This document shows positions 292 to 10,786 of a DNA stretch of 32,000 nt, piece after piece. Each line of letters opens with the position of its first letter. Position 1 is the first letter of the stretch. The DNA lies in the NCBI GenBank assembly GCA_902528545.1, contig CABZTB010000003.1, positions 47,433 to 79,432 of the forward strand, in the 5' to 3' direction. The notes under the pieces are model-generated. The model was not told where the DNA came from, did not search any database, and worked only from the letters and a program-made list of their open reading frames with translations. Source of the DNA: an uncultured Pelagibacteraceae bacterium (GTDB lineage: Bacteria > Pseudomonadota > Alphaproteobacteria > Pelagibacterales > Pelagibacteraceae). The position numbers and the translations under genes are program-made.

Positions 292-329
292 ACTATTATT
301 AAGAGAGAGAATAACATATATTCATACTG

Positions 330-1742
330 ATGAAAAAATTCTTAGGCATAATTTTTCTGGGACTAATATTAAACAATAATGCTTTTGCTGGACCATATGA
401 AAGTTTGATAAAATTTAATAGATGGCTAAGCTTAAATGGTTATGATCAGTATTTAGATAAAACAGGAGATCCTGTTGATATGGTGCTTGATAGATCGCTT
501 TGTACATCTGAGGCAACTTGGGACGAATGTGTTGGAGCTGATGGAAAATTAATACCAACCAAAGATCGTAAATACACTCTAATTTATCCAAATAATTTAG
601 ATGTAAAAATAATGAAAAGGGGAGGTGGAAACGAAATAAATTATCAAGCCAATCCTAATTTTGGCACTTTACTCTTTTATGTTTTCCATTACTTAGAGGA
701 TATAAAAGGATTTGGTAAATATTTAGTACAACCATCTAAAAATCCAATTAAATTCAAATCAAATTTAATAGATGATAAAATTGTAAAAAAACAATTACAA
801 ACAAAAGCAATTCTAAGTTATCTTTATTTTGAAAATGATGAAATCATTGTTGATGAAATTTCACCTAAGGATCGTTTTGGTATTATCTTTAAAAATGATA
901 CTAAATGGAGTTCCATGTCGATGGGTAAAAGCTTAGTTTCTTACGTGACAGGTCATGCAATTTGTGGCGGTTATATTGATAGTATTGATACAACATTAAA
1001 CGACTGGCCTTTGATCAAGAACACTCTCTATTCTAAAAAAAAATTAATTGATATTCTAAACATGGCTGCTGGAGATCAACAATATGTTGATGATCATGAT
1101 GGATTAAAAAAGACTGGAAGATGGTACAATAGCTTTCCTATATCTGCTTTTGCTGATTTAGAATTAAAAGATTCAGAACCATCTAATTCTAAAAAGTATC
1201 ATTATAATGGTTTAGCAACAAATATTATAATGAACTATGTAATTTACAAAACTGATAAAGATTTTCAAAAACTTTTAAATGAAATTTTTCAAAAAAAAGC
1301 CAAAGTAGAAAATAGTGTATTTTTTTTAAAACAAAAAGGAATTTCAGATAAGCAAGGTCCAGGAAGATATTCATTTAGAGCTAGTAGATATGATTATCTA
1401 AGAATTGCAAAAGCAATCATGGATGATTATCAAAATGATACTTGTGTAGGTAAATATTTAAAAGAAATTCATGAAAGGAGAATTAAAAAAAATTTAAAAA
1501 AAGGACACGAACCTGGCTTTAATCTCTCGAGTACTTATGGTGGACAATTTCATATGGATTATCCAGGTCTAAAAAATAGGGTAGTTTTTGGTTTAGGAGG
1601 TTTTGGTGGTCAGGCGATTTTGATTGATGTGGAAAATTCAAGAATAGTTGTTCTAAATTCTTTGCATTATAATAACAAGAAATTCAAATATAATGTTAAA
1701 AAACTTTTATTAGATCCAATAAAAAACGGAAGATTAAATTAA
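330..1742 (+). CDS. Secreted serine hydrolase, beta-lactamase/PBP-related fold
   Basis: 470 aa. N-terminal signal peptide MKKFLGIIFLGLILNNNAFA|GP. SxxK-type motif in SMSMGKSLVSYVTGHAI. YHYNGLATNII resembles the YxN region. C-terminal GLGGFGGQAILIDVENSRIVVLNS resembles the third conserved box of class C-like hydrolases. Confidence 0.55.
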   Translation: MKKFLGIIFLGLILNNNAFAGPYESLIKFNRWLSLNGYDQYLDKTGDPVDMVLDRSLCTSEATWDECVGADGKLIPTKDRKYTLIYPNNLDVKIMKRGGGNEINYQANPNFGTLLFYVFHYLEDIKGFGKYLVQPSKNPIKFKSNLIDDKIVKKQLQTKAILSYLYFENDEIIVDEISPKDRFGIIFKNDTKWSSMSMGKSLVSYVTGHAICGGYIDSIDTTLNDWPLIKNTLYSKKKLIDILNMAAGDQQYVDDHDGLKKTGRWYNSFPISAFADLELKDSEPSNSKKYHYNGLATNIIMNYVIYKTDKDFQKLLNEIFQKKAKVENSVFFLKQKGISDKQGPGRYSFRASRYDYLRIAKAIMDDYQNDTCVGKYLKEIHERRIKKNLKKGHEPGFNLSSTYGGQFHMDYPGLKNRVVFGLGGFGGQAILIDVENSRIVVLNSLHYNNKKFKYNVKKLLLDPIKNGRLN

Positions 1743-1755
1743 AAAAATTTACTTA
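1731..1755 (+). repeat. Third copy of the core module (agattaaattaaaaaaatttactta)
   Basis: 23/25 identical to 3384-3408 (agataaaataaaaaaaatttactta). It overlaps the last three codons and the stop of the hydrolase ORF. Confidence 0.6.
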
Positions 1756-1773
1756 ATAATATTTATTCGAACC

Positions 1774-1791
1774 AGAGCATGACTAGAGCAT
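1774..1791 (+). repeat. Tandem word pair agagcat-gact-agagcat (11-bp period) upstream of the pilin gene
   Basis: agagcat at 1774-1780 and 1785-1791. It sits exactly 22 nt after the ctta of the junction, the same spacing as the word pair at 2356. Confidence 0.55.
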
Positions 1792-1813
1792 AGAGTGATG
1801 GTATAACAATGTT

Positions 1814-2314
1814 ATGAAACAAAAAGGTTTCACCCTAATAGAACTCCTAGTCGTAGTAGCCATCATTGGTATCCTTGCTGCAGTAGGAGTGGTTGTTTAT
1901 AATGGGTATACGAGTAATGCTAAAAATGCAGTTCTTAAAAATAATCATAAAACAATAATAAAAATGATTAAGGAAGATTTTGTTAAATGTGAAATTGAAG
2001 GAAAACTTGATAGATTTGTTTGGAGCAGTGGTGCAGTTAAAGAATATACAAACTGTACCCTCGCTTTTGATCAAGGTATTTTACAACAACATTTTTTTTT
2101 CGTCGGATTAAAAGACCCAATCTTTGTTAGACCTAGCGCTTGGGGAAATAGGAAAGTTATGGATTCAGGTGCCTTATGGGCTGGATCTCCAAGTGGTTCA
2201 TATAAAATAGGAAAAACTTTTGTTGAAAGTAGTTGGACTAATTTAAAAATCACAACATATATGACTGATGGGGTAACAAAATTAGAAGATAACTTAATAG
2301 TACCAAATAATTGA
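1814..2314 (+). CDS. Type IV pilin / pseudopilin-like protein with a prepilin-peptidase (class III) signal
   Basis: 166 aa. N-terminus MKQKG|FTLIELLVVVAIIGILAAVGVVVY is the canonical G/FTLIE cleavage and methylation motif plus hydrophobic helix. Variable C-terminal globular part has two Cys. Confidence 0.8.
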   Translation: MKQKGFTLIELLVVVAIIGILAAVGVVVYNGYTSNAKNAVLKNNHKTIIKMIKEDFVKCEIEGKLDRFVWSSGAVKEYTNCTLAFDQGILQQHFFFVGLKDPIFVRPSAWGNRKVMDSGALWAGSPSGSYKIGKTFVESSWTNLKITTYMTDGVTKLEDNLIVPNN

Positions 2315-2355
2315 ATTATTTTTATTGGAAAATCTTAATAATTAATTTTCAGATT
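2315..2355 (+). repeat. L module copy 1 (ATTATTTTTATTGGAAAAT + related tail)
   Basis: 19 nt at 2315-2333 are identical to 3586-3604. The following ~20 nt (cttaataattaattttcagatt) are about 65% identical to 3605-3624. Weaker similarity (8/12) extends 12 nt leftward. Confidence 0.7.
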
Positions 2356-2387
2356 CTCGGATCATTCTCGGATCTAGATAGATAAAT
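2356..2387 (+). repeat. Left bracket of the DUF4268 cassette: ctcggatc-att-ctcggatc + tagat + agataaat
   Basis: ctcggatcattctcggatct is identical to 3360-3379 and is followed by the shared agataaa core. The 8-mer repeats at 11-bp period. Confidence 0.8.
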
Positions 2388-2412
2388 TTATGATACATTA
2401 ATATAAAAAATT

Positions 2413-3354
2413 ATGGTTTCGAGACTTAAAAAACAAAAAATAAGAGATATCTGGAAAACAGAAGATAAAGACTTTACTCCATGGTTGGTTCAAAATATTG
2501 CACTTCTTAATGAAGATTTAGGCTTGAATATTCAAGATCCTGAAAGTGAAAAAAAGTTAGATACTTTCAAAGTAGATATCGTGGCTGAAGATGATCAAGG
2601 AAAAGTTATAATTGAAAATCAGTTTGAAAAATCTGATCACGATCATTTAGGAAAATTATTAACTTACATAAGTAACGTAGAAAATACTAAAAAAGCAATT
2701 TGGATTGTAGAAGATGTAAAACCAGAACATCACAGAGCAATAGAATGGCTTAATGCTAATGTAAAAACGTGCTTATTTTTTTTAGTGAAAATTCAAGTTT
2801 TTAAAATAAAGGATAGTGAGCCAGGAGCTCAATTCTTTTTATTATCAGGACCAGATGAAAATATTACGAAGGTTGGAAAAATTAAGGAAGAGGACTCAGA
2901 AAAAGAAAAAATTAAATTTAATTTTTGGTCAGCCTTTTATGAAAAATTAAAACAAAAAAGTAATATTTATAGTAACACAGCTCCAAAGGGCAGAAATTAT
3001 ATGGGTGTAAGTGCTGGGGTAAGAGGGGTCAACTACCTTGTTGCTGCAATGAACAGATCTGGCCAAGTAGAAATCTACATTGATAGAGGAAAAGAAGAGG
3101 GCAAAGAGGCAAATTTAAAAATTTATAATCATTTGGAGAAACATAAATCATCTATTGAAAAAGATTTTGGAAATGAATTAGAATGGAAAAGACTAGATGA
3201 CTCTAGGGCTTGTAGAATAGCATTTAAATCTGATTTAGGTGGTTTCCAAGATGAAGACACATGGGAGGATATTCACAATTTTCTAGTAGATCATTTGATA
3301 AAACTAGAAAAAGCTTTTAAAGGACCGATAAAAGAATTAGATAGGATTTTATAG
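2413..3354 (+). CDS. PD-(D/E)xK nuclease-like N-terminal domain fused to a DUF4268-like C-terminal domain
   Basis: 313 aa. FKVDIVAEDDQGKVIIENQFEKSDHDHLGKLLTY fits a D...E-x-Q/K restriction-endonuclease-fold core. C-terminal FNFWSAFYEKLKQK... resembles DUF4268 as I remember it. Not verified by HMM. Confidence 0.5.
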   Translation: MVSRLKKQKIRDIWKTEDKDFTPWLVQNIALLNEDLGLNIQDPESEKKLDTFKVDIVAEDDQGKVIIENQFEKSDHDHLGKLLTYISNVENTKKAIWIVEDVKPEHHRAIEWLNANVKTCLFFLVKIQVFKIKDSEPGAQFFLLSGPDENITKVGKIKEEDSEKEKIKFNFWSAFYEKLKQKSNIYSNTAPKGRNYMGVSAGVRGVNYLVAAMNRSGQVEIYIDRGKEEGKEANLKIYNHLEKHKSSIEKDFGNELEWKRLDDSRACRIAFKSDLGGFQDEDTWEDIHNFLVDHLIKLEKAFKGPIKELDRIL

Positions 3355-3357
3355 GAT
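3341..3357 (+). repeat. R module copy 1 (ATAGGATTTTATAGGAT)
   Basis: 17/17 identical to 7385-7401. It is internally atagga repeated at 10-bp period. It supplies the last codons and the TAG stop of the DUF4268-like ORF. Confidence 0.75.
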
Positions 3358-3359
3358 CC

Positions 3360-3392
3360 CTCGGATCATTCTCGGATCTGGGGAGATAAAAT
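3360..3392 (+). repeat. Right bracket of the DUF4268 cassette: ctcggatc-att-ctcggatc + tgggg + agataaaat
   Basis: Direct repeat of 2356-2387: 20 nt identical, 4-5 nt divergent, then the shared core. Confidence 0.8.
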
Positions 3393-3501
3393 AAAAAAAA
3401 TTTACTTATTCATCTTGTTCAATTATAAATATTGGCATAAACACTCATGAAATTCATTAATGCCCTCGTGGTGAAATTGGTAGACACAAAGGACTTAAAA
3501 T
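3383..3501 (+). repeat. Left copy of the 119-bp direct repeat (core + tRNA-Leu upstream region + 5' 40 nt of tRNA-Leu)
   Basis: Ungapped alignment with 7427-7545 gives 113/119 identities by my count. Four of the six mismatches cluster in the 10 nt just upstream of the tRNA 5' end. Confidence 0.9.
3462..3501 (+). pseudogene. Truncated tRNA-Leu(UAA) copy: acceptor 5' strand, D-arm, anticodon 5' stem and loop only
   Basis: gccctcgtggtgaaattggtagacacaaaggacttaaaat is identical to 7506-7545. Identity stops one nt past the anticodon loop. No variable arm, T-arm or 3' acceptor strand follows. Confidence 0.9.
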
Positions 3502-3523
3502 AGTTTGAATTGAGGAATTTCAG

Positions 3524-3550
3524 AGTCTCTTATAGTCTCTAATAGTCTTA
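3524..3550 (+). repeat. Three tandem words agtctct / agtctct / agtctta at 10-bp period
   Basis: Copies at 3524-3530, 3534-3540 and 3544-3550, beginning 23 nt after the tRNA-fragment breakpoint. Confidence 0.7.
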
Positions 3551-3585
3551 ATCCCTTATAATCCTAGAACTTTCTAAATCGTTGG

Positions 3586-3624
3586 ATTATTTTTATTGGA
3601 AAATATGAATAATAAATTCTGTTA
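3586..3624 (+). repeat. L module copy 2
   Basis: 3586-3604 is identical to 2315-2333. The tail atgaataataaattctgtta is related to 2334-2355. Confidence 0.7.
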
Positions 3625-3659
3625 AACTAGTAGCAAACTAGTAGTCAGAGAGATAAAAT
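3625..3659 (+). repeat. Left bracket of the 3-gene cassette: aactagtag-caa-actagtag + tcagag + agataaaat
   Basis: 33/35 identical to 7402-7436. The 8-mer actagtag repeats at 11-bp period. The core ends 5 nt before the ATG at 3665. Confidence 0.85.
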
Positions 3660-3664
3660 TTTAT

Positions 3665-5188
3665 ATGTTTGATTTTCTCAAAAACAATAAGTGGATTAAA
3701 TATTATGATGAAATTAAATCATATTTTAACCCAAGATTTTTAATTGATGCAATCATTCCTACAGATATCATTGATACAGCAAAAACAGTAGCAAGCAACA
3801 AATCAGAAGACCAAATATTTAGATTTATAATAGGGTGTGCAATAGTTAGAGGAATACTTATTGCAATTCCTGGAGATGTAGCTGTTGGATTATATATTGC
3901 CCAAGCTATTGATTTTGCAATGGCAGCTAACATAGCAAGACTAGTTGGTTTAGATTTTAAAAAAGAAAATATTTTTAAGTTGTTAGGAGCTGCAAGTCTT
4001 TCTGCAGTTGCTGTGCTTTATGCGTTTGAAAAAGTTTTAAATATTATATTTAAATTCGTAGCTAATTTACCAATTGCGGCACCAGCTTCATTTATTTCTA
4101 CTACAATTACTTCATTGTTTTTGGGTTTTTTTTGTTTTCTCGCTTTTACTGAAATTAAAAATAGTGGTAACAAAAAACTTAAAATACTATCTGTTGGAAA
4201 AATAGCTAAAAACGCATCTACCTTTACTTATAAAATCGGTAAAAATCTAATGACTTTGCTATTTAAAGATATGCCAGGACTTTTCAATCAAGTGAAAGAA
4301 AATGTTAAATCTTTTATGCAGCTAAACATTGACTATAAAAAAAAAATTAAGGGAGAATTTTTTTTTGCTGCAAGTATGGCTTATTTATTAGACGGAAAGA
4401 CACAAAGTTTTGATGGTCCTATAAGTCAAATGTGGCTGGATGCTTGGAGAATGTCGTATACCAATAAATTAGGCCCTGATGCCTCGATTGAAGATATTAA
4501 AAATTTAGCACAACAGTATCAGCCTGAGCAAATGCCTGGTGTTGAGAATTTGGTACAATCAAAATTTTATGAAATTTTGGAGGAAAACTATGAAAATATG
4601 GATGGAGATAATTGGTCAGCAAAACTTTTTACTGATCCGTCACATCCTGCTACTGATGTAAGATTTTATAACTCCGAGACTAATCAAACTTATGAAGTAA
4701 ACTACAAACTAACTGATGACTCTGAATATATTGAGCACCATTTAGAAAAATATCCTGATACACCAGTTGTAACTTCACCTGAAACAGCAGAGAAAATGAA
4801 TAATCCATTAGTCACCGGAGGTCAGTATGAAACTAAAGAAGTTATTAAATTATCAGATGATAATTTTATGAAATTATTAAATTCAAAACATTCACTTTAT
4901 TTGCAAGAGGGGGCCGCAGCAGCAGGTATTATTGTGCTATCAATTTATTTATTTCCTTTTTTCGTTCATTACTTCAAAGAAAATATTGATAGAGAACAAT
5001 TTATGTTAGCTGTTAAGAAATTTGTACCAGATGTTACTACCAAAACATTAAATAGAATAATAATGCTTACACTTATGGGGCCTATTTTTGGATGGTTTTT
5101 ATTAGCAAGATTTTTATTAAATATATCAACCCACGAAAGTGATAATGTTAAAGATATAAAGCAATTATTTTATAAACCCTTAGTATGA
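3665..5188 (+). CDS. Multi-pass membrane protein of unknown function (N-terminal DUF697-like region, central soluble domain, C-terminal TM hairpin)
   Basis: 507 aa. Hydrophobic segments at about aa 52-95, 105-125, 133-165, 415-437 and 465-487. ILIAIPGDVAVGLYIAQAIDFAMAANIARLVGL recalls the DUF697/YcjF-type motif (from memory, unverified). About 230 aa of central hydrophilic domain has no motif I recognise. Confidence 0.6.
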   Translation: MFDFLKNNKWIKYYDEIKSYFNPRFLIDAIIPTDIIDTAKTVASNKSEDQIFRFIIGCAIVRGILIAIPGDVAVGLYIAQAIDFAMAANIARLVGLDFKKENIFKLLGAASLSAVAVLYAFEKVLNIIFKFVANLPIAAPASFISTTITSLFLGFFCFLAFTEIKNSGNKKLKILSVGKIAKNASTFTYKIGKNLMTLLFKDMPGLFNQVKENVKSFMQLNIDYKKKIKGEFFFAASMAYLLDGKTQSFDGPISQMWLDAWRMSYTNKLGPDASIEDIKNLAQQYQPEQMPGVENLVQSKFYEILEENYENMDGDNWSAKLFTDPSHPATDVRFYNSETNQTYEVNYKLTDDSEYIEHHLEKYPDTPVVTSPETAEKMNNPLVTGGQYETKEVIKLSDDNFMKLLNSKHSLYLQEGAAAAGIIVLSIYLFPFFVHYFKENIDREQFMLAVKKFVPDVTTKTLNRIIMLTLMGPIFGWFLLARFLLNISTHESDNVKDIKQLFYKPLV

Positions 5189-5203
5189 GGCTACTTTTAA
5201 AAC

Positions 5204-5845
5204 ATGAAAATTAAGAACAAGAAACTATATAGAATAGATTTTAAACATAGCAAATCCACATGTAATTATGATGAGCATGATGATTATGATGAAATATATG
5301 GAAAGGCTGTAATTGATGAAGGAGATGACAATACTGAAAATTACGTTGATGCAGGTTTAATTGAAGCTTATTTTTTAAACGTAGAGGACATAAAAGAACC
5401 GGTTCATTTTTTATTAGACTCAATATCTGGTGATCATGAGCGTCTAGCTAAATATTTTGACGATGAAAATAAAATTAACGATAAAATTAGAAAATTACTC
5501 AAATTGAGCGAAGAGGATGTTAGAATGATGAGTCTAAATTTTCTCTATATTCATAAATTAAAAGTTTTAAAAAAGTACAGAGGATTAGGAATAGGAAAAA
5601 CCTTAATGCAAGCTATGATAAATGATTATAAAAGAGATAGTTCTCTTGCTTTTTTAATTGCTGCACCCTTGCAATTTAGTGGACGAGAAATAAACGATGA
5701 TCCCAGTGCTCAAGAAAGTTTTAACAATAGAACTGAAGCCCAATCAAGAAAGAAACTTATAGAGTTATATGAGAGTTATGGTTTTTTAAAGATACCTGGT
5801 GGTGAAGGTGATATGGTAGCTTATATTGGAGATTGGTTTTTTTAA
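5204..5845 (+). CDS. GNAT-family N-acetyltransferase with an acidic N-terminal extension
   Basis: 213 aa. LYIHKLKVLKKYRGLGIGKTLMQAMI is the GNAT motif A (R-x-x-G-x-G) acetyl-CoA loop. KLIELYESYGFLKI is motif-B-like. It starts 15 nt after the membrane-protein stop. Confidence 0.7.
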   Translation: MKIKNKKLYRIDFKHSKSTCNYDEHDDYDEIYGKAVIDEGDDNTENYVDAGLIEAYFLNVEDIKEPVHFLLDSISGDHERLAKYFDDENKINDKIRKLLKLSEEDVRMMSLNFLYIHKLKVLKKYRGLGIGKTLMQAMINDYKRDSSLAFLIAAPLQFSGREINDDPSAQESFNNRTEAQSRKKLIELYESYGFLKIPGGEGDMVAYIGDWFF

Positions 5846-7351
5846 CTACAAGTTAAAAGGTTTTAATTTAGCCTGGACAGTTGGTCTAGTTATACTAATA
5901 CCTTCATCATTAAGTTTTAAAGCTATATTTTTGTAAGAGAAACCATCTTTTCTCATCTCTTTAATCAAAGAGATATGCTCTTTATTTAGATTAACGAAAT
6001 AGGGTGTTTTAAAATTATTTTTTTTTGCGTATCTATCAAATTGACTCCTGCTAATTGGTTTGAATTTTTTTGAAAAATCTTTTCTAATATTTGCAAAAAG
6101 TCTTTGTTTTTTAATTTCCTTTTCTAAAAATTTTTTTTCTTTTTTTGTTAAATTAATGTGTTTATATTCCTTATTTCTTAAATTTGGGTTATTTCCATCT
6201 GGATATAAATAGAAAAATAATTCTTTAAATTTTTCTCCAGTAACAACGTTTGAAATGTGTGAGGGGATTACTTTTAATTTTGAAGCAATGGTGTCATATT
6301 TTAATCCATCATTATACATTTTATGTATATTAAAAGCTATTTTCTCTCTAGTCTTAATCATTTTAAGTGGAAAATTATTATTTGTTTTTGAAACTTTCTT
6401 AAAATTACCATGATTAATTATTGAATTTATTTTTTCTCTTATATTCTCTCTATAATCAATTCTAATTAATTTAATTTTTTTTAATTGAGCATATTTTTCC
6501 TTTTCTTTGTCTCTTTTCTTAATTTTCAATAACTCTATTTTTCCATTCCCTTTTTTATTTGCCCAATGTTTTGTTGTAGTATGTTGTTCACCATCTATTT
6601 CTATAAAAATTATATTTCCTTTTTTTTCTTTAATTACGATATCAATATAATGAACATTTCCTTTATATTTAATCTGTTGTTCTATTTCAAAAGGAATTCC
6701 TAAACTATGTAAAGCGTGATAAGCTATTAGTTCATATTTAGAGGCATTACAAAAACTACATTTAACACCTCTTGTTATTTTATTAATATTTTTCTCATGA
6801 ACCTTATGCCACTCATGTATATTACATTTGACTGAGTACTTTTCGTTAGATTTGTATTTTTTATCTTTTTTGATATTTACCGCATTAACGAACCCATTTG
6901 AATAATGATTGACTAACTTTATGATTTGTTTTCCAGTTTTGGGTTTATTAAGTTTACATGTCCCACAACCTCTTCCTTGCAAATGAATTTCATATTTTTG
7001 TTTATAATTCCCATTATGAGTAGGACAAAAATAAGTGATGAAGTTTTTTGAACCTTTATATTTAAAATTTGGGTATTGGTAGAAACTATTATGAACTTTG
7101 CTCAATCTTTCTACATGTTCCTTATTAGTAAGATTGAGATTATTACACTTTGAACAAAATGGGTTCTTTCTAAAGTTAGACATTCCCTGAATATTTTCGT
7201 GATTTTCTGAACAATGAAATTTGATTTTCCAAACTTTACCTTTTCCAGATTTTAGATGAAGTGCATCAATAAATTTCCATTTGAGCTTCTTCTTTTTGCA
7301 TTTAGATATAAATTCTTCTTTAATTTGAGCTATGTTTCTTAAACTTCTCAT
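5846..7351 (-). CDS. Zn-ribbon x3 + Vsr/DUF559-like (PD-(D/E)xK) endonuclease + tandem HTH modules; homing-endonuclease-like architecture
   Basis: 501 aa. Three C-x2-3-H-x14-18-C-x2-C units (aa 46-69, 108-132, 176-201). SKYELIAYHALHSLGIPFEIEQQIKYKGNVHYIDIVIKEKKGNIIFIEIDGEQH...KKRDKEKEKY...IKLIRIDY matches the Vsr/DUF559 pattern. HTH-like DGLKYDTIASKLKVIPSHISNVVTG and DGFSYKNIALKLNDEGISITRPTVQAKL. Confidence 0.65.
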   Translation of the reverse strand: MRSLRNIAQIKEEFISKCKKKKLKWKFIDALHLKSGKGKVWKIKFHCSENHENIQGMSNFRKNPFCSKCNNLNLTNKEHVERLSKVHNSFYQYPNFKYKGSKNFITYFCPTHNGNYKQKYEIHLQGRGCGTCKLNKPKTGKQIIKLVNHYSNGFVNAVNIKKDKKYKSNEKYSVKCNIHEWHKVHEKNINKITRGVKCSFCNASKYELIAYHALHSLGIPFEIEQQIKYKGNVHYIDIVIKEKKGNIIFIEIDGEQHTTTKHWANKKGNGKIELLKIKKRDKEKEKYAQLKKIKLIRIDYRENIREKINSIINHGNFKKVSKTNNNFPLKMIKTREKIAFNIHKMYNDGLKYDTIASKLKVIPSHISNVVTGEKFKELFFYLYPDGNNPNLRNKEYKHINLTKKEKKFLEKEIKKQRLFANIRKDFSKKFKPISRSQFDRYAKKNNFKTPYFVNLNKEHISLIKEMRKDGFSYKNIALKLNDEGISITRPTVQAKLKPFNL

Positions 7352-7384
7352 AATAATAAGTTTACAAAATTATTATTTATATAA

Positions 7385-7401
7385 ATAGGATTTTATAGGA
7401 T
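7385..7401 (+). repeat. R module copy 2 (ATAGGATTTTATAGGAT)
   Basis: Identical to 3341-3357. Here it is intergenic, upstream of the minus-strand nuclease start. Confidence 0.75.
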
Positions 7402-7436
7402 AACTAGTAGCAAACTAGTAGCCACAGAGATAAAAT
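7402..7436 (+). repeat. Right bracket of the 3-gene cassette: aactagtag-caa-actagtag + ccacag + agataaaat
   Basis: 33/35 identical to 3625-3659. Confidence 0.85.
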
Positions 7437-7545
7437 AAAAAAATTTTACTTATTCCTCTTGTTCAATTATAAATATTGGCATAAACACTCATGAAAATAA
7501 CTCATGCCCTCGTGGTGAAATTGGTAGACACAAAGGACTTAAAAT
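7427..7545 (+). repeat. Right copy of the 119-bp direct repeat (core + tRNA-Leu upstream region + 5' 40 nt of the intact tRNA-Leu)
   Basis: See 3383-3501. Confidence 0.9.
7446..7487 (+). promoter_or_regulatory. Candidate tRNA-Leu promoter region (duplicated at 3402-3443)
   Basis: Two sigma70-like readings are possible: ttactt-16-tataaa (7446-7473) or ttgttc-17-taaaca (7459-7487). Both lie 20-35 nt upstream of the tRNA 5' end. AT-rich context makes this weak. Confidence 0.3.
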
Positions 7546-7591
7546 CCTTGCCGCTTGCGGAGTGCCAGTTCGAGTCTGGCCGAGGGCACCA
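7506..7591 (+). tRNA. tRNA-Leu (anticodon UAA), class II with long variable arm, CCA encoded
   Basis: Manual fold. Acceptor gccctcg/cgagggc. Anticodon stem aagga/tcctt with loop cttaaaa. Variable arm gccgcttgcggagt. T-arm gccag-ttcgagt-ctggc. Ends in acca. Confidence 0.95.
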
Positions 7592-8366: not shown

Positions 8367-8442
8367 TGGTGCCCCCGCACGGATTCGAACCGCGGACCTA
8401 TTGATTACAAATCAATTGCTCTACCAGCTGAGCTACAAGGGC
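8367..8442 (-). tRNA. tRNA-Thr (anticodon UGU), CCA encoded
   Basis: Reverse complement gcccttgtagctcagctggtagagcaattgatttgtaatcaataggtccgcggttcgaatccgtgcgggggcacca folds as a 76-nt cloverleaf. Anticodon loop is tttgtaa. Confidence 0.9.
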
Positions 8443-8471: not shown

Positions 8472-9218
8472 TTAATCAACTCTTTTTTTTAGATAACTTA
8501 AATGATGAAATACAATTGCTGCACTATTTGATACATTTAGGCTTTCAATTTTTTGATTTATCTTAATCTTAATTAAAAAATCTGCATATTTGGATGTATG
8601 TTTATGCATTCCTGATCCTTCAGATCCAAATAACAATATATTATTTCCTTTCCACTCGATTTCAGTAAAGTCTTTTTTTCCATTACCGTCAAAACCATAT
8701 ACCCAAAAATTTTTTTCTTTTAGATTTTTAAGTGTTGAATTGATATTAGAAACCTCAAAAATATTAATATATTCTATTGCACCACTTGCTGCTTTATACA
8801 TAAGTTTACTTTCGCTAGGAAAGTTTCTTTCTTTAATAATCACTCCATCTATATTAAAAGAGGCAGCACTTCTGATCAAAGATCCTATATTTCTTGGATC
8901 AGTTACACCATCAAGACAAACTAATGTTATGTTATCTCTATCTTTAATGTATTCTTTGAGAATAGGTTTAATCATATGCTCAACTTCTGCAACATAACCT
9001 TGATGCTGTAAATTTTCTCTGGTGCTATACTTATCTAGCTCTTTTTTCGTCTTAAAGTAAACTTTGATATCTTTTAACAAGTTTTTATTAGGATTTTTTT
9101 TATGAATATTCTTCTTACTTTCTTCAGTTAAAAATACCCTTAAAACTTTTCTTTTAGGATTACGTAGGGCCTCAATTACAGCATGTTGTCCAATGATAAA
9201 AAAAGATGATTTGTTCAT
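8472..9218 (-). CDS. rlmB: SpoU/TrmH-family RNA 2'-O-methyltransferase, RlmB-like
   Basis: 248 aa. N-terminal substrate-binding region (IGQHAVIEALRNP). SpoU motifs DPRNIGSLIRSAASFN, LLFGSEGSGM and LNVSNSAAIVFH. Confidence 0.75.
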   Translation of the reverse strand: MNKSSFFIIGQHAVIEALRNPKRKVLRVFLTEESKKNIHKKNPNKNLLKDIKVYFKTKKELDKYSTRENLQHQGYVAEVEHMIKPILKEYIKDRDNITLVCLDGVTDPRNIGSLIRSAASFNIDGVIIKERNFPSESKLMYKAASGAIEYINIFEVSNINSTLKNLKEKNFWVYGFDGNGKKDFTEIEWKGNNILLFGSEGSGMHKHTSKYADFLIKIKINQKIESLNVSNSAAIVFHHLSYLKKRVD

Positions 9219-9272
9219 AAAATTACCTTTGTTTTACACGTTTTTTCAAATATTTTCCTATTAAATCACGTG

Positions 9273-9595: not shown

Positions 9596-10786
9596 ATGTC
9601 AAAAGAAAAATTTGTTAGAAATAAACCGCATTGTAACATCGGAACAATCGGTCACGTCGATCATGGTAAAACAACTTTAACTGCTGCGATCACTAAAGTT
9701 TTATCTGAAACTGGTGGTGCTCAGGCTGTAGCATATGATCAAATTGATAAAGCGCCAGAGGAGAAAGAAAGAGGGATTACAATTTCAACAGCACACGTTG
9801 AATATGAAACTGAAAAAAGACACTATGCGCACGTAGATTGTCCAGGTCACGCTGACTATGTGAAGAATATGATTACAGGTGCAGCACAAATGGATGGTGC
9901 GATTTTAGTTGTTAACGCTGCTGATGGTCCTATGCCTCAAACAAGAGAGCATATTCTATTAGCAAGACAAGTTGGTGTTCCTGCTATCTGTGTTTATTTA
10001 AATAAAGTTGATCAGGTTGATGATAAAGAAATGATTGATCTTGTCGAAGAGGAGATTAAAGAATTATTAACTTCGTATAAATTTCCAGGTGACAAAACTC
10101 CAATCGCTAAAGGTTCTGCACTTGCAGCAGTTGAAGGTAGAGATGATGAAATTGGAAAAAATTCAATTCTAGAGTTGATGAAGAATGTTGATGAATTTAT
10201 TCCACAACCAGATAGACCAAAAGATAAAGATTTCTTGATGCCAGTAGAGGATGTTTTCTCAATCTCAGGAAGAGGTACAGTTGCAACTGGAAGAGTTGAG
10301 TCAGGTATACTTAAAACTGGTGATGAGCTTGAGATAGTAGGTATTAGAGAAACTAAAAAATCTGTCTGTACTGGTGTTGAAATGTTCAGAAAACTTTTAG
10401 ACTCTGGTGAAGCTGGTGATAACGTTGGTGTACTTTTAAGAGGTGTAGAAAGAACTGATATTGAAAGAGGACAAGTTCTTTGTAAACCAGGTTCTGTTAC
10501 ACCACATACTAAATTTGAAGCTCAAGCTTATGTATTAAAAAAAGAGGAAGGTGGAAGACATACGCCTTTTTTTACAAAGTACAGACCTCAATTCTATTTC
10601 AGAACTACAGATGTAACTGGAGAAGTAGAGTTACCGGCTGGTACCGAAATGGTTATGCCTGGTGATGACGCTAAATTTACAGTTAAATTAATTACGCCAA
10701 TCGCGATGTCAGAGAAATTAAACTTTGCTATTCGTGAAGGTGGAAGAACTGTCGGAGCTGGAGTAGTAACTAAAATTATAGAGTAA
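9596..10786 (+). CDS. tuf: Translation elongation factor Tu
   Basis: 396 aa. [18 protein letters not shown] and NKVD GTPase motifs, with full-length EF-Tu similarity. Confidence 0.98.

Follow-up and report, generated by a model that had tools for sequence, protein, structure and literature searches.

Here we report on a stretch of DNA of 32,000 nucleotides from an uncultured Pelagibacteraceae bacterium (called the window in the following, and numbered from its first letter), and on the foreign DNA located directly upstream of its tRNA-Leu(UAA) gene. The island at positions 292-7505 is an array of at least four small cassettes. The one closest to the tRNA (3501-7544, called the study cassette) is, in the interpretation that we favor with moderate confidence, a non-autonomous cassette inserted in the anticodon loop of tRNA-Leu(UAA), for which an integrase is provided in trans. 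The cassette has a defined anatomy that recurs in related genomes, empty sites occur among these genomes, and the attachment (att) architecture is common with that of integrase-bearing elements. On the basis of sequence comparisons, the integrase family of one such element (L072; the L numbers are our labels for loci and contigs) is the most likely to mobilize it.

The window has an AT-rich base composition (ca 30% GC), and its closest relatives in a scan of a genome collection are Pelagibacteraceae genomes. An earlier sequence-only reading of this DNA had described one integrase-less island at the tRNA, bounded by two copies of a 119-nt repeat. A MAFFT alignment of 3383-3501 with 7427-7545 gives 113 of 119 identities without gaps, in agreement with that description, and each copy indeed consists of 79 nt of upstream sequence and nucleotides 1-40 of the tRNA. 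A repeat search finds weaker similarity that widens the pair to 164 nt at 87% identity (3338-3501 and 7382-7545, spacing 4044). A 119-nt repeat of 95% identity cannot have arisen by chance in 32 kb. As had also been claimed, no recombinase is found between the copies with Pfam, PHROGs, PADLOC or tblastn with two integrase families. The study cassette has no integrase of its own beside the att site, PF00589 or any other recombinase being absent from its three open reading frames (ORFs), and tblastn detects no integrase homologue in the whole 32-kb window. The hallmark of a tRNA island is present, namely direct repeats with a tRNA segment that ends at the anticodon loop, and an intact tRNA at one end.

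Two details of that description have to be modified. The repeat does stop at the anticodon loop, but the shared segment in the 33 cassettes of relatives described below ends at nucleotide 39, where the loop (CTTAAAA) also ends; in the left copy of the window, the T that follows as the 40th base already belongs to a family-C left end (TAGTTTGA...), of which it is the first base. Further, the two copies had been taken as one resident and one foreign, on account of their divergence just upstream of the tRNA. Four of the six mismatches do lie in the 10 nt before the tRNA start, the other two positions being in an A/T run and variable triplet, and the insertion is foreign. The mismatches correspond, however, to two leader alleles (GAAATTCATTAAT and GAAAATAACTCAT) that each recur in many cassettes, and neither copy is resident; both are cassette-borne. 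Insertion of a group I intron or a homing endonuclease gene was considered and rejected: the break is located after the anticodon loop and not within the anticodon itself, the 5' exon is duplicated, and no intron RNA is found with Rfam.

The locus was compared in relatives by scanning the genome collection with NAD kinase, which gave 80 SAR11 loci, and the 61 of them with at least 3 kb of upstream sequence were counted. One or two extra copies of the leader with tRNA nucleotides 1-39 lie ahead of the intact tRNA-Leu in 26 of the 61. These copies delimit 33 cassettes of 0.9-8.8 kb, and all junctions are at nucleotide 39. The uninterrupted site that the sequence-only reading had suggested looking for exists: in L008, L010, L023 and L025, the leader and tRNA-Leu come immediately after the homologue of ORF 34-291. 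Moreover, L049 equals L021 with a 1,016-bp one-gene cassette inserted exactly after nucleotide 39, L064 equals L056 with two cassettes at tRNA-Leu, and one cassette encoding a 711-aa protein has three different upstream neighbors (L011, L024 and L057). An ancient fixed duplication is ruled out by the empty sites and the alternative occupants in relatives. We give hardly any credence to the idea that the tRNA upstream region was duplicated locally in tandem and trapped unrelated DNA between its copies. It would account for two direct repeats in one locus, but dozens of genomes have unrelated cargo between the same structured ends, empty sites occur, and the copies differ in flanking words and leader alleles, each of which is common to other cassettes. 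Since the resident tRNA-Leu of some lineages (L027, L036 at 6706, L125 and L160) has the end of a coding gene upstream, dissimilar to the cassette-borne leader, the leader belongs to the element and was not copied from the local chromosome.

A common layout is found in most of the 33 cassettes and in ca 80 metagenome contigs. The left arm begins with ca 20 variable nucleotides, for which three families can be distinguished, A (GCCGAGGGAT...), B (AACATAGGGTAG...) and C (TAGTTTGA.TTGAGG, that of the window). These are followed by three AGTC motifs with 10-nt spacing, an ATCC pair, an AT-rich module, a tandem pair of 8-9-nt words ca 124-125 nt after the junction, and a core, (A/T)GAGAGATAAA, after which the cargo begins. 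The right arm consists of a TAGGAT pair, the same word pair, the core GAGATAAAAT, the leader of ca 79 nt and tRNA nucleotides 1-39. The TAGGAT pair is an inverted copy of the ATCC pair, and occurs almost only at these two places. The word types vary between cassettes (ACTAGTAGC, CTCGGATC, ACTAGAAC, ACTTGCAC, ACCAGTAC and others). The words of the two arms inside one cassette match in 24 out of 24 cases, 23 of them scored by script and one by inspection, and those on the two sides of a tRNA fragment separating neighboring cassettes in 0 out of 12. In L137 (7861-9665), two neighboring cassettes have the same word type (CTCGGAC), and one right arm there has three word copies.

When the window is read with this layout (Table 1), the DNA between the repeats, which is foreign, integrase-less and inserted at the anticodon loop as first described, turns out not to be a lone island but the tRNA-proximal unit of the array. 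The left repeat copy can be assigned to the right arm of the upstream DUF4268 cassette, because the CTCGGATC pair that precedes it recurs at 2356-2374. The tRNA-distal junctions are partly deleted or degraded. The 470-aa gene is followed by only the first 15 nt of the leader (1743-1757), which makes this a truncated junction; L005 has a 99%-identical copy of the gene, followed by the full leader and the tRNA fragment. The pilin-like cassette has as its cargo a type IV pilin-like gene (1814-2314) with an N-terminal methylation motif (PF07963). On the 3' side of tRNA-Leu(UAA) follow the genes for NAD kinase, tRNA-Thr, SpoU methylase, tRNA-Tyr/Gly, tuf, tRNA-Trp and secE-nusG-rplK.

Table 1. Positions of the features discussed in the text. 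Positions refer to the window, except in the last row, where the contig is given.
Feature	Position	Strand	Remark
Whole additive island, at least four cassettes	292-7505	+	between conserved ORF 34-291 and tRNA-Leu(UAA)
Oldest unit, 470-aa gene	330-1742	+	core-like AAGAGAGAGAATAA ahead, about 311-324
Pilin-like cassette	1771-2314	+	word pair ACCAGAGCA/ACTAGAGCA 1771-1790, core TAGAGTGATGG; right arm deleted
DUF4268 / PDC-S11 cassette	2316-3500	+	left arm truncated, starts at ATTATTTTTATTGG
DUF4268 cassette, left word pair CTCGGATC	2356-2374	+	ahead of gene
DUF4268 gene	2413-3354	+	PADLOC PDC-S11, E = 5e-105
DUF4268 cassette, right end		+	TAGGAT pair 3342-3357, word pair CTCGGATC x2 3360-3378, core, leader
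Repeat, left copy	3383-3501	+	right arm of upstream DUF4268 cassette: core, 79-nt leader, tRNA 5' part
tRNA nucleotides 1-39, fragment closing DUF4268 cassette	3462-3500	+	
Study cassette, left arm	3501-3659	+	family-C junction-proximal variable segment TAGTTTGAATTGAGGAATTTC
Study cassette, AGTC motifs	3524, 3534, 3544	+	10-nt spacing
Study cassette, ATCC pair	3551-3566	+	inverted copy of TAGGAT pair; AT-rich module follows
Study cassette, left word pair ACTAGTAGC/ACTAGTAGT	3626-3645	+	
Study cassette, left core CAGAGAGATAAAAT	3646-3659	+	
Cargo gene 1, 507-aa predicted membrane protein	3665-5188	+	middle part resembles candidate defence component PDC-M72B (E = 1e-10)
Cargo gene 2, GNAT-family acetyltransferase-like, 213 aa	5204-5845	+	
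Cargo gene 3, 501 aa, three Cys-rich motifs	5846-7351	-	phage 'HNH/homing endonuclease' PHROGs
Study cassette, right arm	7386-7505	+	TAGGAT pair 7386-7401, ACTAGTAGC x2 7403-7422
Study cassette, right core CACAGAGATAAAAT	7423-7436	+	then leader / putative promoter up to 7505
Repeat, right copy	7427-7545	+	right arm of study cassette and tRNA 5' half
tRNA-Leu(UAA), intact	7506-7591	+	ARAGORN and Rfam; shared sequence ends 7544
Word copies inside int	L183 4629-4710; L192 4933-5030; L187 6245-6330; L198 249-330		

A phmmer screen of all ORFs in the tRNA-Leu loci found three integrases, in L072, L073 and L029. The one of direct relevance is L072, an 8.7-kb element with a family-A left end, situated between a tRNA fragment and the intact tRNA. 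Its 544-aa tyrosine integrase (PF00589, 3.7e-10) starts ca 100 nt after the junction, the other genes are small ORFs and an AEP-primase/DUF5906 helicase, and its word pairs (ACCAGTACC) have the same distances on both arms as those of the cassettes. The integrase family comprises 115 clusters with 36-99% identity, the proteins having 540-560 aa and the elements ca 8 kb. In metagenomes, the contigs of these elements are frequently circularly permuted, or concatemers in head-to-tail order. L183 belongs to the permuted contigs, the two ends of L194 overlap by 127 nt, and the scaffolds L186 and L192 are concatemeric with periods of 7,940 bp and 8,002 bp, respectively. The attP of the elements consists of the word pair, the core, the ca 79-nt leader and tRNA nucleotides 1-39 on one side of the crossover, and of GGGATTCACA, three AGTC and int on the other, the full motif to the right of the crossover being G(C/T)C(G/C)AGGGATTCACA. 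This is the type of att site found in the cassettes, with the same core, crossover, AGTC repeats and word-pair geometry in L072, L183, L192, L197 and L198, and the words match from arm to arm in 10 of 11 integrase-bearing elements. L198 (integrase P0070) is integrated at tRNA-Leu with words CTAGGATC/CTCGGATC, which is the type of the DUF4268 cassette in the window, and its AGTCT repeats are the closest to the family-C left arm of the window. Both ends of the study cassette carry att sequences of the type of this autonomous family, which would place it in a class similar to the CIMEs discussed below.

Some members of the same integrase family carry other tRNA halves, Leu-CAA-like, Arg-UCU-like or a reversed 3' half. 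In these elements (L193 5560-5600; L196 4730-4770; L194 1-60), the anticodon-loop crossover and the word pairs are kept, from which it follows that the family retargets by swapping the tRNA half. The GGGATTCACA motif is kept in L193 and L194. In L029, the integrase is partial and is located just past NAD kinase (3351-4212), a place that is occupied in the window by tRNA-Thr (8367-8442, minus strand). This site may be a second integration hotspot next door.

The common att architecture also fits another explanation, namely that the study cassette is the dead remnant of an autonomous element that lost int and rep in situ, gained cargo and never moved as a cassette, and the visibly degraded tRNA-distal junctions of the window are in line with such decay. 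We nevertheless regard it as quite unlikely. Using tblastn and clustering, remnants of int or rep are found in none of 32 integrase-less cassettes, and the inverted TAGGAT/ATCC pairs and the conserved AT-rich module of the cassettes are absent from the integrase-bearing elements examined by eye. In addition, even cassettes of 0.9-1.5 kb have perfect arms, and the occurrence of the 711-aa cassette beside three different upstream neighbors is difficult to reconcile with a unit that never moved.

Duplication of the 5' half of a tRNA, which had been pointed out as unusual, is so in general, but in SAR11 it is the known rule: integration of the pelagiphage HTVC105P at the 5' end of tRNA-Leu(TAA) has been demonstrated experimentally (Zhao et al., 10.1101/410191), and its attP has the same 43-nt tRNA half. 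Phage and cassettes have in common the attB and the side of the tRNA that the incoming DNA provides, namely the 5' half, and in both cases the rebuilt tRNA has an upstream region that came with the element. A phage of this type could also be what mobilizes the cassette, or the cassette could be its remnant. In both HTVC105P and uvMED S35-C6, the attP carries tRNA nucleotides 1-43 right after int, and in L073 (1-9996) a podovirus-like prophage, with terminase and other phage genes, occupies the same tRNA-Leu. The L073 integrase (347 aa) is located directly upstream of the tRNA, of which only nucleotides 31-86 match the host version. However, HTVC105P is a 42-kb podovirus with an integrase of its own, which comes from an unrelated subfamily and is no more than a distant relative of the L072 family (E = 4e-4). 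The phage has the tRNA half in common with the cassette and nothing else; the word pairs and AGTC repeats are missing and the leader is different. A blastn comparison with 50,697 phage records gives matches of 46-51 nt that are confined to the tRNA half, the attP flanks being unrelated, and no phage genes are present in the island. A role of such a phage is thus very unlikely.

An indication of what the words are comes from the elements L187 and L192. They are 96-100% identical over the 8-kb unit, with 98-100% identity in the primase-helicase (Rep), and the ca 100 nt from the crossover to the int start codon are nearly identical. The words, on the other hand, differ on both arms (ACTTGCACA in one and ACTAGTACA in the other), and the identity over integrase residues 1-150 is only 38-52%. 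Since Rep is near-identical while the words and this part of the integrase differ, the primase-helicase can be excluded as the reader of the words, and the idea that they are replication iterons for it was rejected. The comparison points to the N-terminal domain of the integrase instead.

In the AlphaFold model of P0070 (pLDDT 83.7), residues 1-25, which are the word-encoded part, form a disordered tail, and the N-domain consists of a four-stranded sheet and a helix. Foldseek matches this domain to the arm-type binding domains of HAI7, HPI and P4-like integrases (TM 0.66-0.70; structures 3ju0, 3jtz and 3rmp), and the rest of the model to the catalytic cores of lambda, Tn1549 and Xer. With Pfam, PF00589 is detected in 55 of 72 members of the family, and Arm-DNA-bind_3, weakly, in 5 of 72. 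The candidate trans partner is thus predicted to be a heterobivalent tyrosine integrase with an arm-type N-domain and a catalytic domain, and its N-terminal arm-binding domain most likely reads the words as arm-type sites.

In the elements, the word copies of the left arm, arranged as W'-W-core-W, are located inside the first ca 25 codons of int, and the N-terminal tail of the integrase changes with the word type (LVH..TST, LEH..TRA, LGS..TRI). The arm-site type can therefore be read from the N-terminus of the protein. The types deduced in this way overlap those of the cassettes: LEH...TRA corresponds to word ACTAGAGCA of the pilin cassette in the window, and LGS...TRI to word ACTCGGATC of the DUF4268 cassette.

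On this basis, the arrival of the study cassette can be envisaged as a site-specific recombination between the tRNA, acting as attB, and a cassette attP of ca 290 bp. The common core would be tRNA nucleotides 1-39, with crossover in the anticodon loop. The P arm would consist of the tandem word pair and the GAGATAAAAT core ca 105-140 nt upstream of the crossover, and the P' arm of the three AGTC repeats at the crossover and the same word pair ca 125 nt downstream. Because such a crossover displaces the resident upstream region, the cassette brings its own leader of ca 79 nt, a putative promoter, together with the tRNA 5' half, and these would rebuild a complete tRNA gene; we assume here that tRNA-Leu(UAA) is single-copy. 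The leader copy left upstream may drive the cargo, which would fit the uniform orientation of the cargo genes. The integrase would be supplied by SAR11 elements of ca 8 kb with int and primase/helicase, which may be satellite-, VEIME- or tycheposon-like, and the integrase-less cassettes, which keep both arms, would need a cognate element of this kind. Repeated insertion at the intact tRNA would push older cassettes outward, where their junctions decay, and in this way give rise to the array at 292-7505.

The cargo of the cassettes is extremely diverse, with 81 protein clusters in the 33 cassettes, almost all of them singletons, and 62 of the 65 ORFs of at least 80 aa have the same orientation as the tRNA. 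PADLOC matches in the cassettes include restriction-modification systems of type I, IIG and III, PDC-S11, PDC-S57, PbeA and mad5. As judged from these predictions, the cargo is mostly defence-like, rich in restriction-modification and candidate defence genes. The 501-aa ORF of the study cassette is among the three ORFs with opposite orientation. It matches phrog_559 (2e-27) and phrog_9084, shows weak similarity to PD-(D/E)XK nucleases and helix-turn-helix domains, has only sub-threshold Pfam hits, and has no relative in the PDB. Within the cassette, it may represent a selfish gene for an endonuclease. The possibility that it is a novel recombinase was rejected, as it has no recombinase domains and no relatives in other cassettes, and most cassettes are without an equivalent.

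The same cargo gene can be found in cassettes with other arms, and the homology then spans from the core to the stop codon or the TAGGAT pair. The 507-aa protein has a homologue with 96% amino-acid identity in an L064 cassette with other arms (word ACTAGAAG, family B), the gene homology beginning exactly in the core AGATAAAAT and stopping at the stop codon. For the DUF4268 gene, a 98.7% identical copy is present in an L014 cassette with word ACTAGTAC. Between genomes, the cargo has a nucleotide identity of 92.7 and 91.8%, which exceeds the 77 and 85%, respectively, of the NAD kinase gene next to it. The TAGGAT pair contains the stop codon of the DUF4268 gene in the window (3342-3357), and likewise that of the 507-aa gene copy in L064 (ca 9785-9800). 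In L014, a further gene comes after a TAGGAT-like end of DUF4268 (ca 9215-9230). The cargo modules seem thus to be bounded by the core at the 5' end and by the TAGGAT pair at the 3' end, and these bounds give hints of a second level of cargo exchange.

Breakpoints of cargo exchange in short conserved motifs such as the core and the TAGGAT pair would also be expected if the cassettes spread by homologous recombination only. The repeats and arms would in that case be homology anchors during exchange of SAR11 DNA, and the arms relics or sequences for expression, with no integrase acting at present on the integrase-less cassettes. Homologous recombination is frequent in SAR11, the repeats are 119-164 nt long, and no free cassette forms were found. 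Unused arms should, however, decay, yet they are intact and word-matched in all 24 canonical cassettes, while the words differ between cassettes. The junction is moreover always at nucleotide 39, as in the attP of the free integrase-bearing elements, and since the tRNA-distal junctions do decay, the proximal ones appear to be maintained or young. We consider this explanation unlikely, although it deserves to be kept in mind.

Several observations weigh against mobilization of the cassette in trans by a word-reading integrase. Canonical arms are missing from ca 8 of the 33 cassettes. No free integrase-less cassette, circular or concatemeric, was found. The junction of an excised circle of the study cassette would read ACTAGTAGC x2, GAGATAAAAT, leader, tRNA nucleotides 1-39, TAGTTTGAATTGAGG ... 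ACTAGTAGC; this pattern with the word of the study cassette gives 0 hits in the metagenome contigs, none of the 37 family-C junctions with two flanks resembles a circle junction, and scans of viral contigs for the three left-end families give chance hits or none. A search for the excised circle, which the sequence-only reading had suggested as a check, gave in other words no evidence for it in assembled contigs. No cassette was seen in two contexts with near-identical (>99%) sequence, no integrase encoding ACTAGTAGC (peptides LVA...TSS) is found among the 115 clusters, and a simple sigma-70 consensus scan does not flag the leader as a promoter, which stays putative. The reading of the words by the N-domain is affected by two further points: L187 and L192 are also dissimilar in a small ORF located upstream of the right arm, which is a confounding factor, and in L186 the right-arm word does not match the integrase.

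The backbone of L186, which is a concatemeric scaffold from Tara, is of the L187 type, but in the region of 9790-9900 it contains a patch of ca 200 bp of the L192 type. The patch comprises the words, leader and tRNA half; it begins shortly before the word pair and ends at the crossover point. The other junction of the scaffold has no match to the standard tRNA half, and may carry an L187-type variant. L186 is either a true mosaic, in which case strict word matching may not be required, or a chimera of the assembly. A search of viral contigs with the L072 integrase gave nothing. The 4,197-bp metagenome contig L112 has a 38-nt terminal overlap within the repeated tRNA/leader sequence; it could be an excised cassette circle, or it may be an artefact of repeat collapse.

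It is instructive to compare the cassettes with known systems. CIMEs, as known from Streptococcus thermophilus (ICESt1/CIME), are flanked by the att sites of an integrative and conjugative element and have no recombination genes, and mobilization by the integrase of a partner has been proposed for them. The cassettes are similar in being bounded by the att sites of an autonomous family, with tandem accretion at a tRNA or gene 3'-end site. They differ in being small (1-5 kb), numerous and highly diverse in cargo, and in forming an integron-like array; their partners are satellite-like rather than conjugative, and the arm sites are of many specificity types. With integron cassettes they have in common the arrays of small units of one to three genes in a single orientation, the diverse cargo, the integrase encoded elsewhere, and the entry of new units at the promoter-nearest end. 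Unlike integrons, the SAR11 arrays have no attC hairpins, IntI or attI, and the ends are direct repeats; recombination takes place at the tRNA anticodon loop, with a lambda/P4-like attP that has arm sites and with a cassette-borne leader (putative promoter). We put forward, tentatively and as somewhat short of an even chance, the following picture as a whole. SAR11 would assemble its defence and flexible island at tRNA-Leu from an undescribed integron-like system of many integrase-less mini-cassettes with a full lambda/P4-type attP and a replacement leader, in which the word pair, present on both arms, is an 'address' for satellite-borne integrase variants whose arm-binding N-domain is exchanged as a module. 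The int 5' end would itself contain the arm sites, and the cassettes would hitch-hike in a chain from phage to satellite to cassette.

Among the systems described so far, the tycheposons of Prochlorococcus (Hackl et al., 10.1101/2020.12.28.424599) and the VEIMEs come closest to the integrase-bearing relatives of the cassettes. Tycheposons resemble these in being tRNA-targeted, with a large tyrosine recombinase and a primase/helicase, and in having both cargo-carrying and satellite-like forms in streamlined hosts of oligotrophic marine waters. Successive integrations at one tRNA likewise build islands there, with units separated by partial tRNA copies. The study cassette lacks the hallmark tyrosine recombinase and replication module, which are present in L072, it has the tRNA 5' half with leader and two att arms with cassette-specific word pairs, and the SAR11 tRNA-Leu(UAA) is not among the 7 Prochlorococcus tRNAs. 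The VEIMEs, which are marine phage satellites (Eppley et al. 2022, PMC9618062), are similar to the ca 8-kb relatives with their integrase, small ORFs and primase-helicase in occurring as head-to-tail concatemers or permuted contigs. Several VEIME modules have been assigned to Pelagibacter, and ca 20% of VEIMEs are without an integrase and might use that of a helper (PMC9618062). The study cassette differs from them in having no integrase, replication or packaging genes, and no free form of it was found; att arms or tRNA-anchored cassette arrays are not described for VEIMEs (PMC9618062). In the sections of PMC11796062 that we draw on, SAR11 is given ca 32 tRNA genes, and partial tRNA repeats in four SAR11 islands are read as signs of 'a gene cassette'; arms, words, leader duplication and a link to an integrase are not described in those sections for such additive islands. 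No description of the arm architecture, word matching, leader duplication or cassette-integrase link was found in the literature that we searched.

SAR11 is the most abundant bacterial clade of the ocean, and is usually described as nearly free of mobile elements. The original idea of a mobile insertion was right in essence, but the insertion should now be regarded as one member of a non-autonomous cassette family that is structured and recurrent. One essential tRNA gene repeatedly acts as the entry point for small cassettes, often defence-related, whose attachment sites are common to satellite-like elements circulating freely in seawater. The element-borne leader shows how a cell could tolerate an insertion between an essential tRNA and the region upstream of it. 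If trans-mobilization is true, phage satellites would be tied directly to the construction of SAR11 genomic islands, and the integrases would constitute a natural set with many arm-site specificities.

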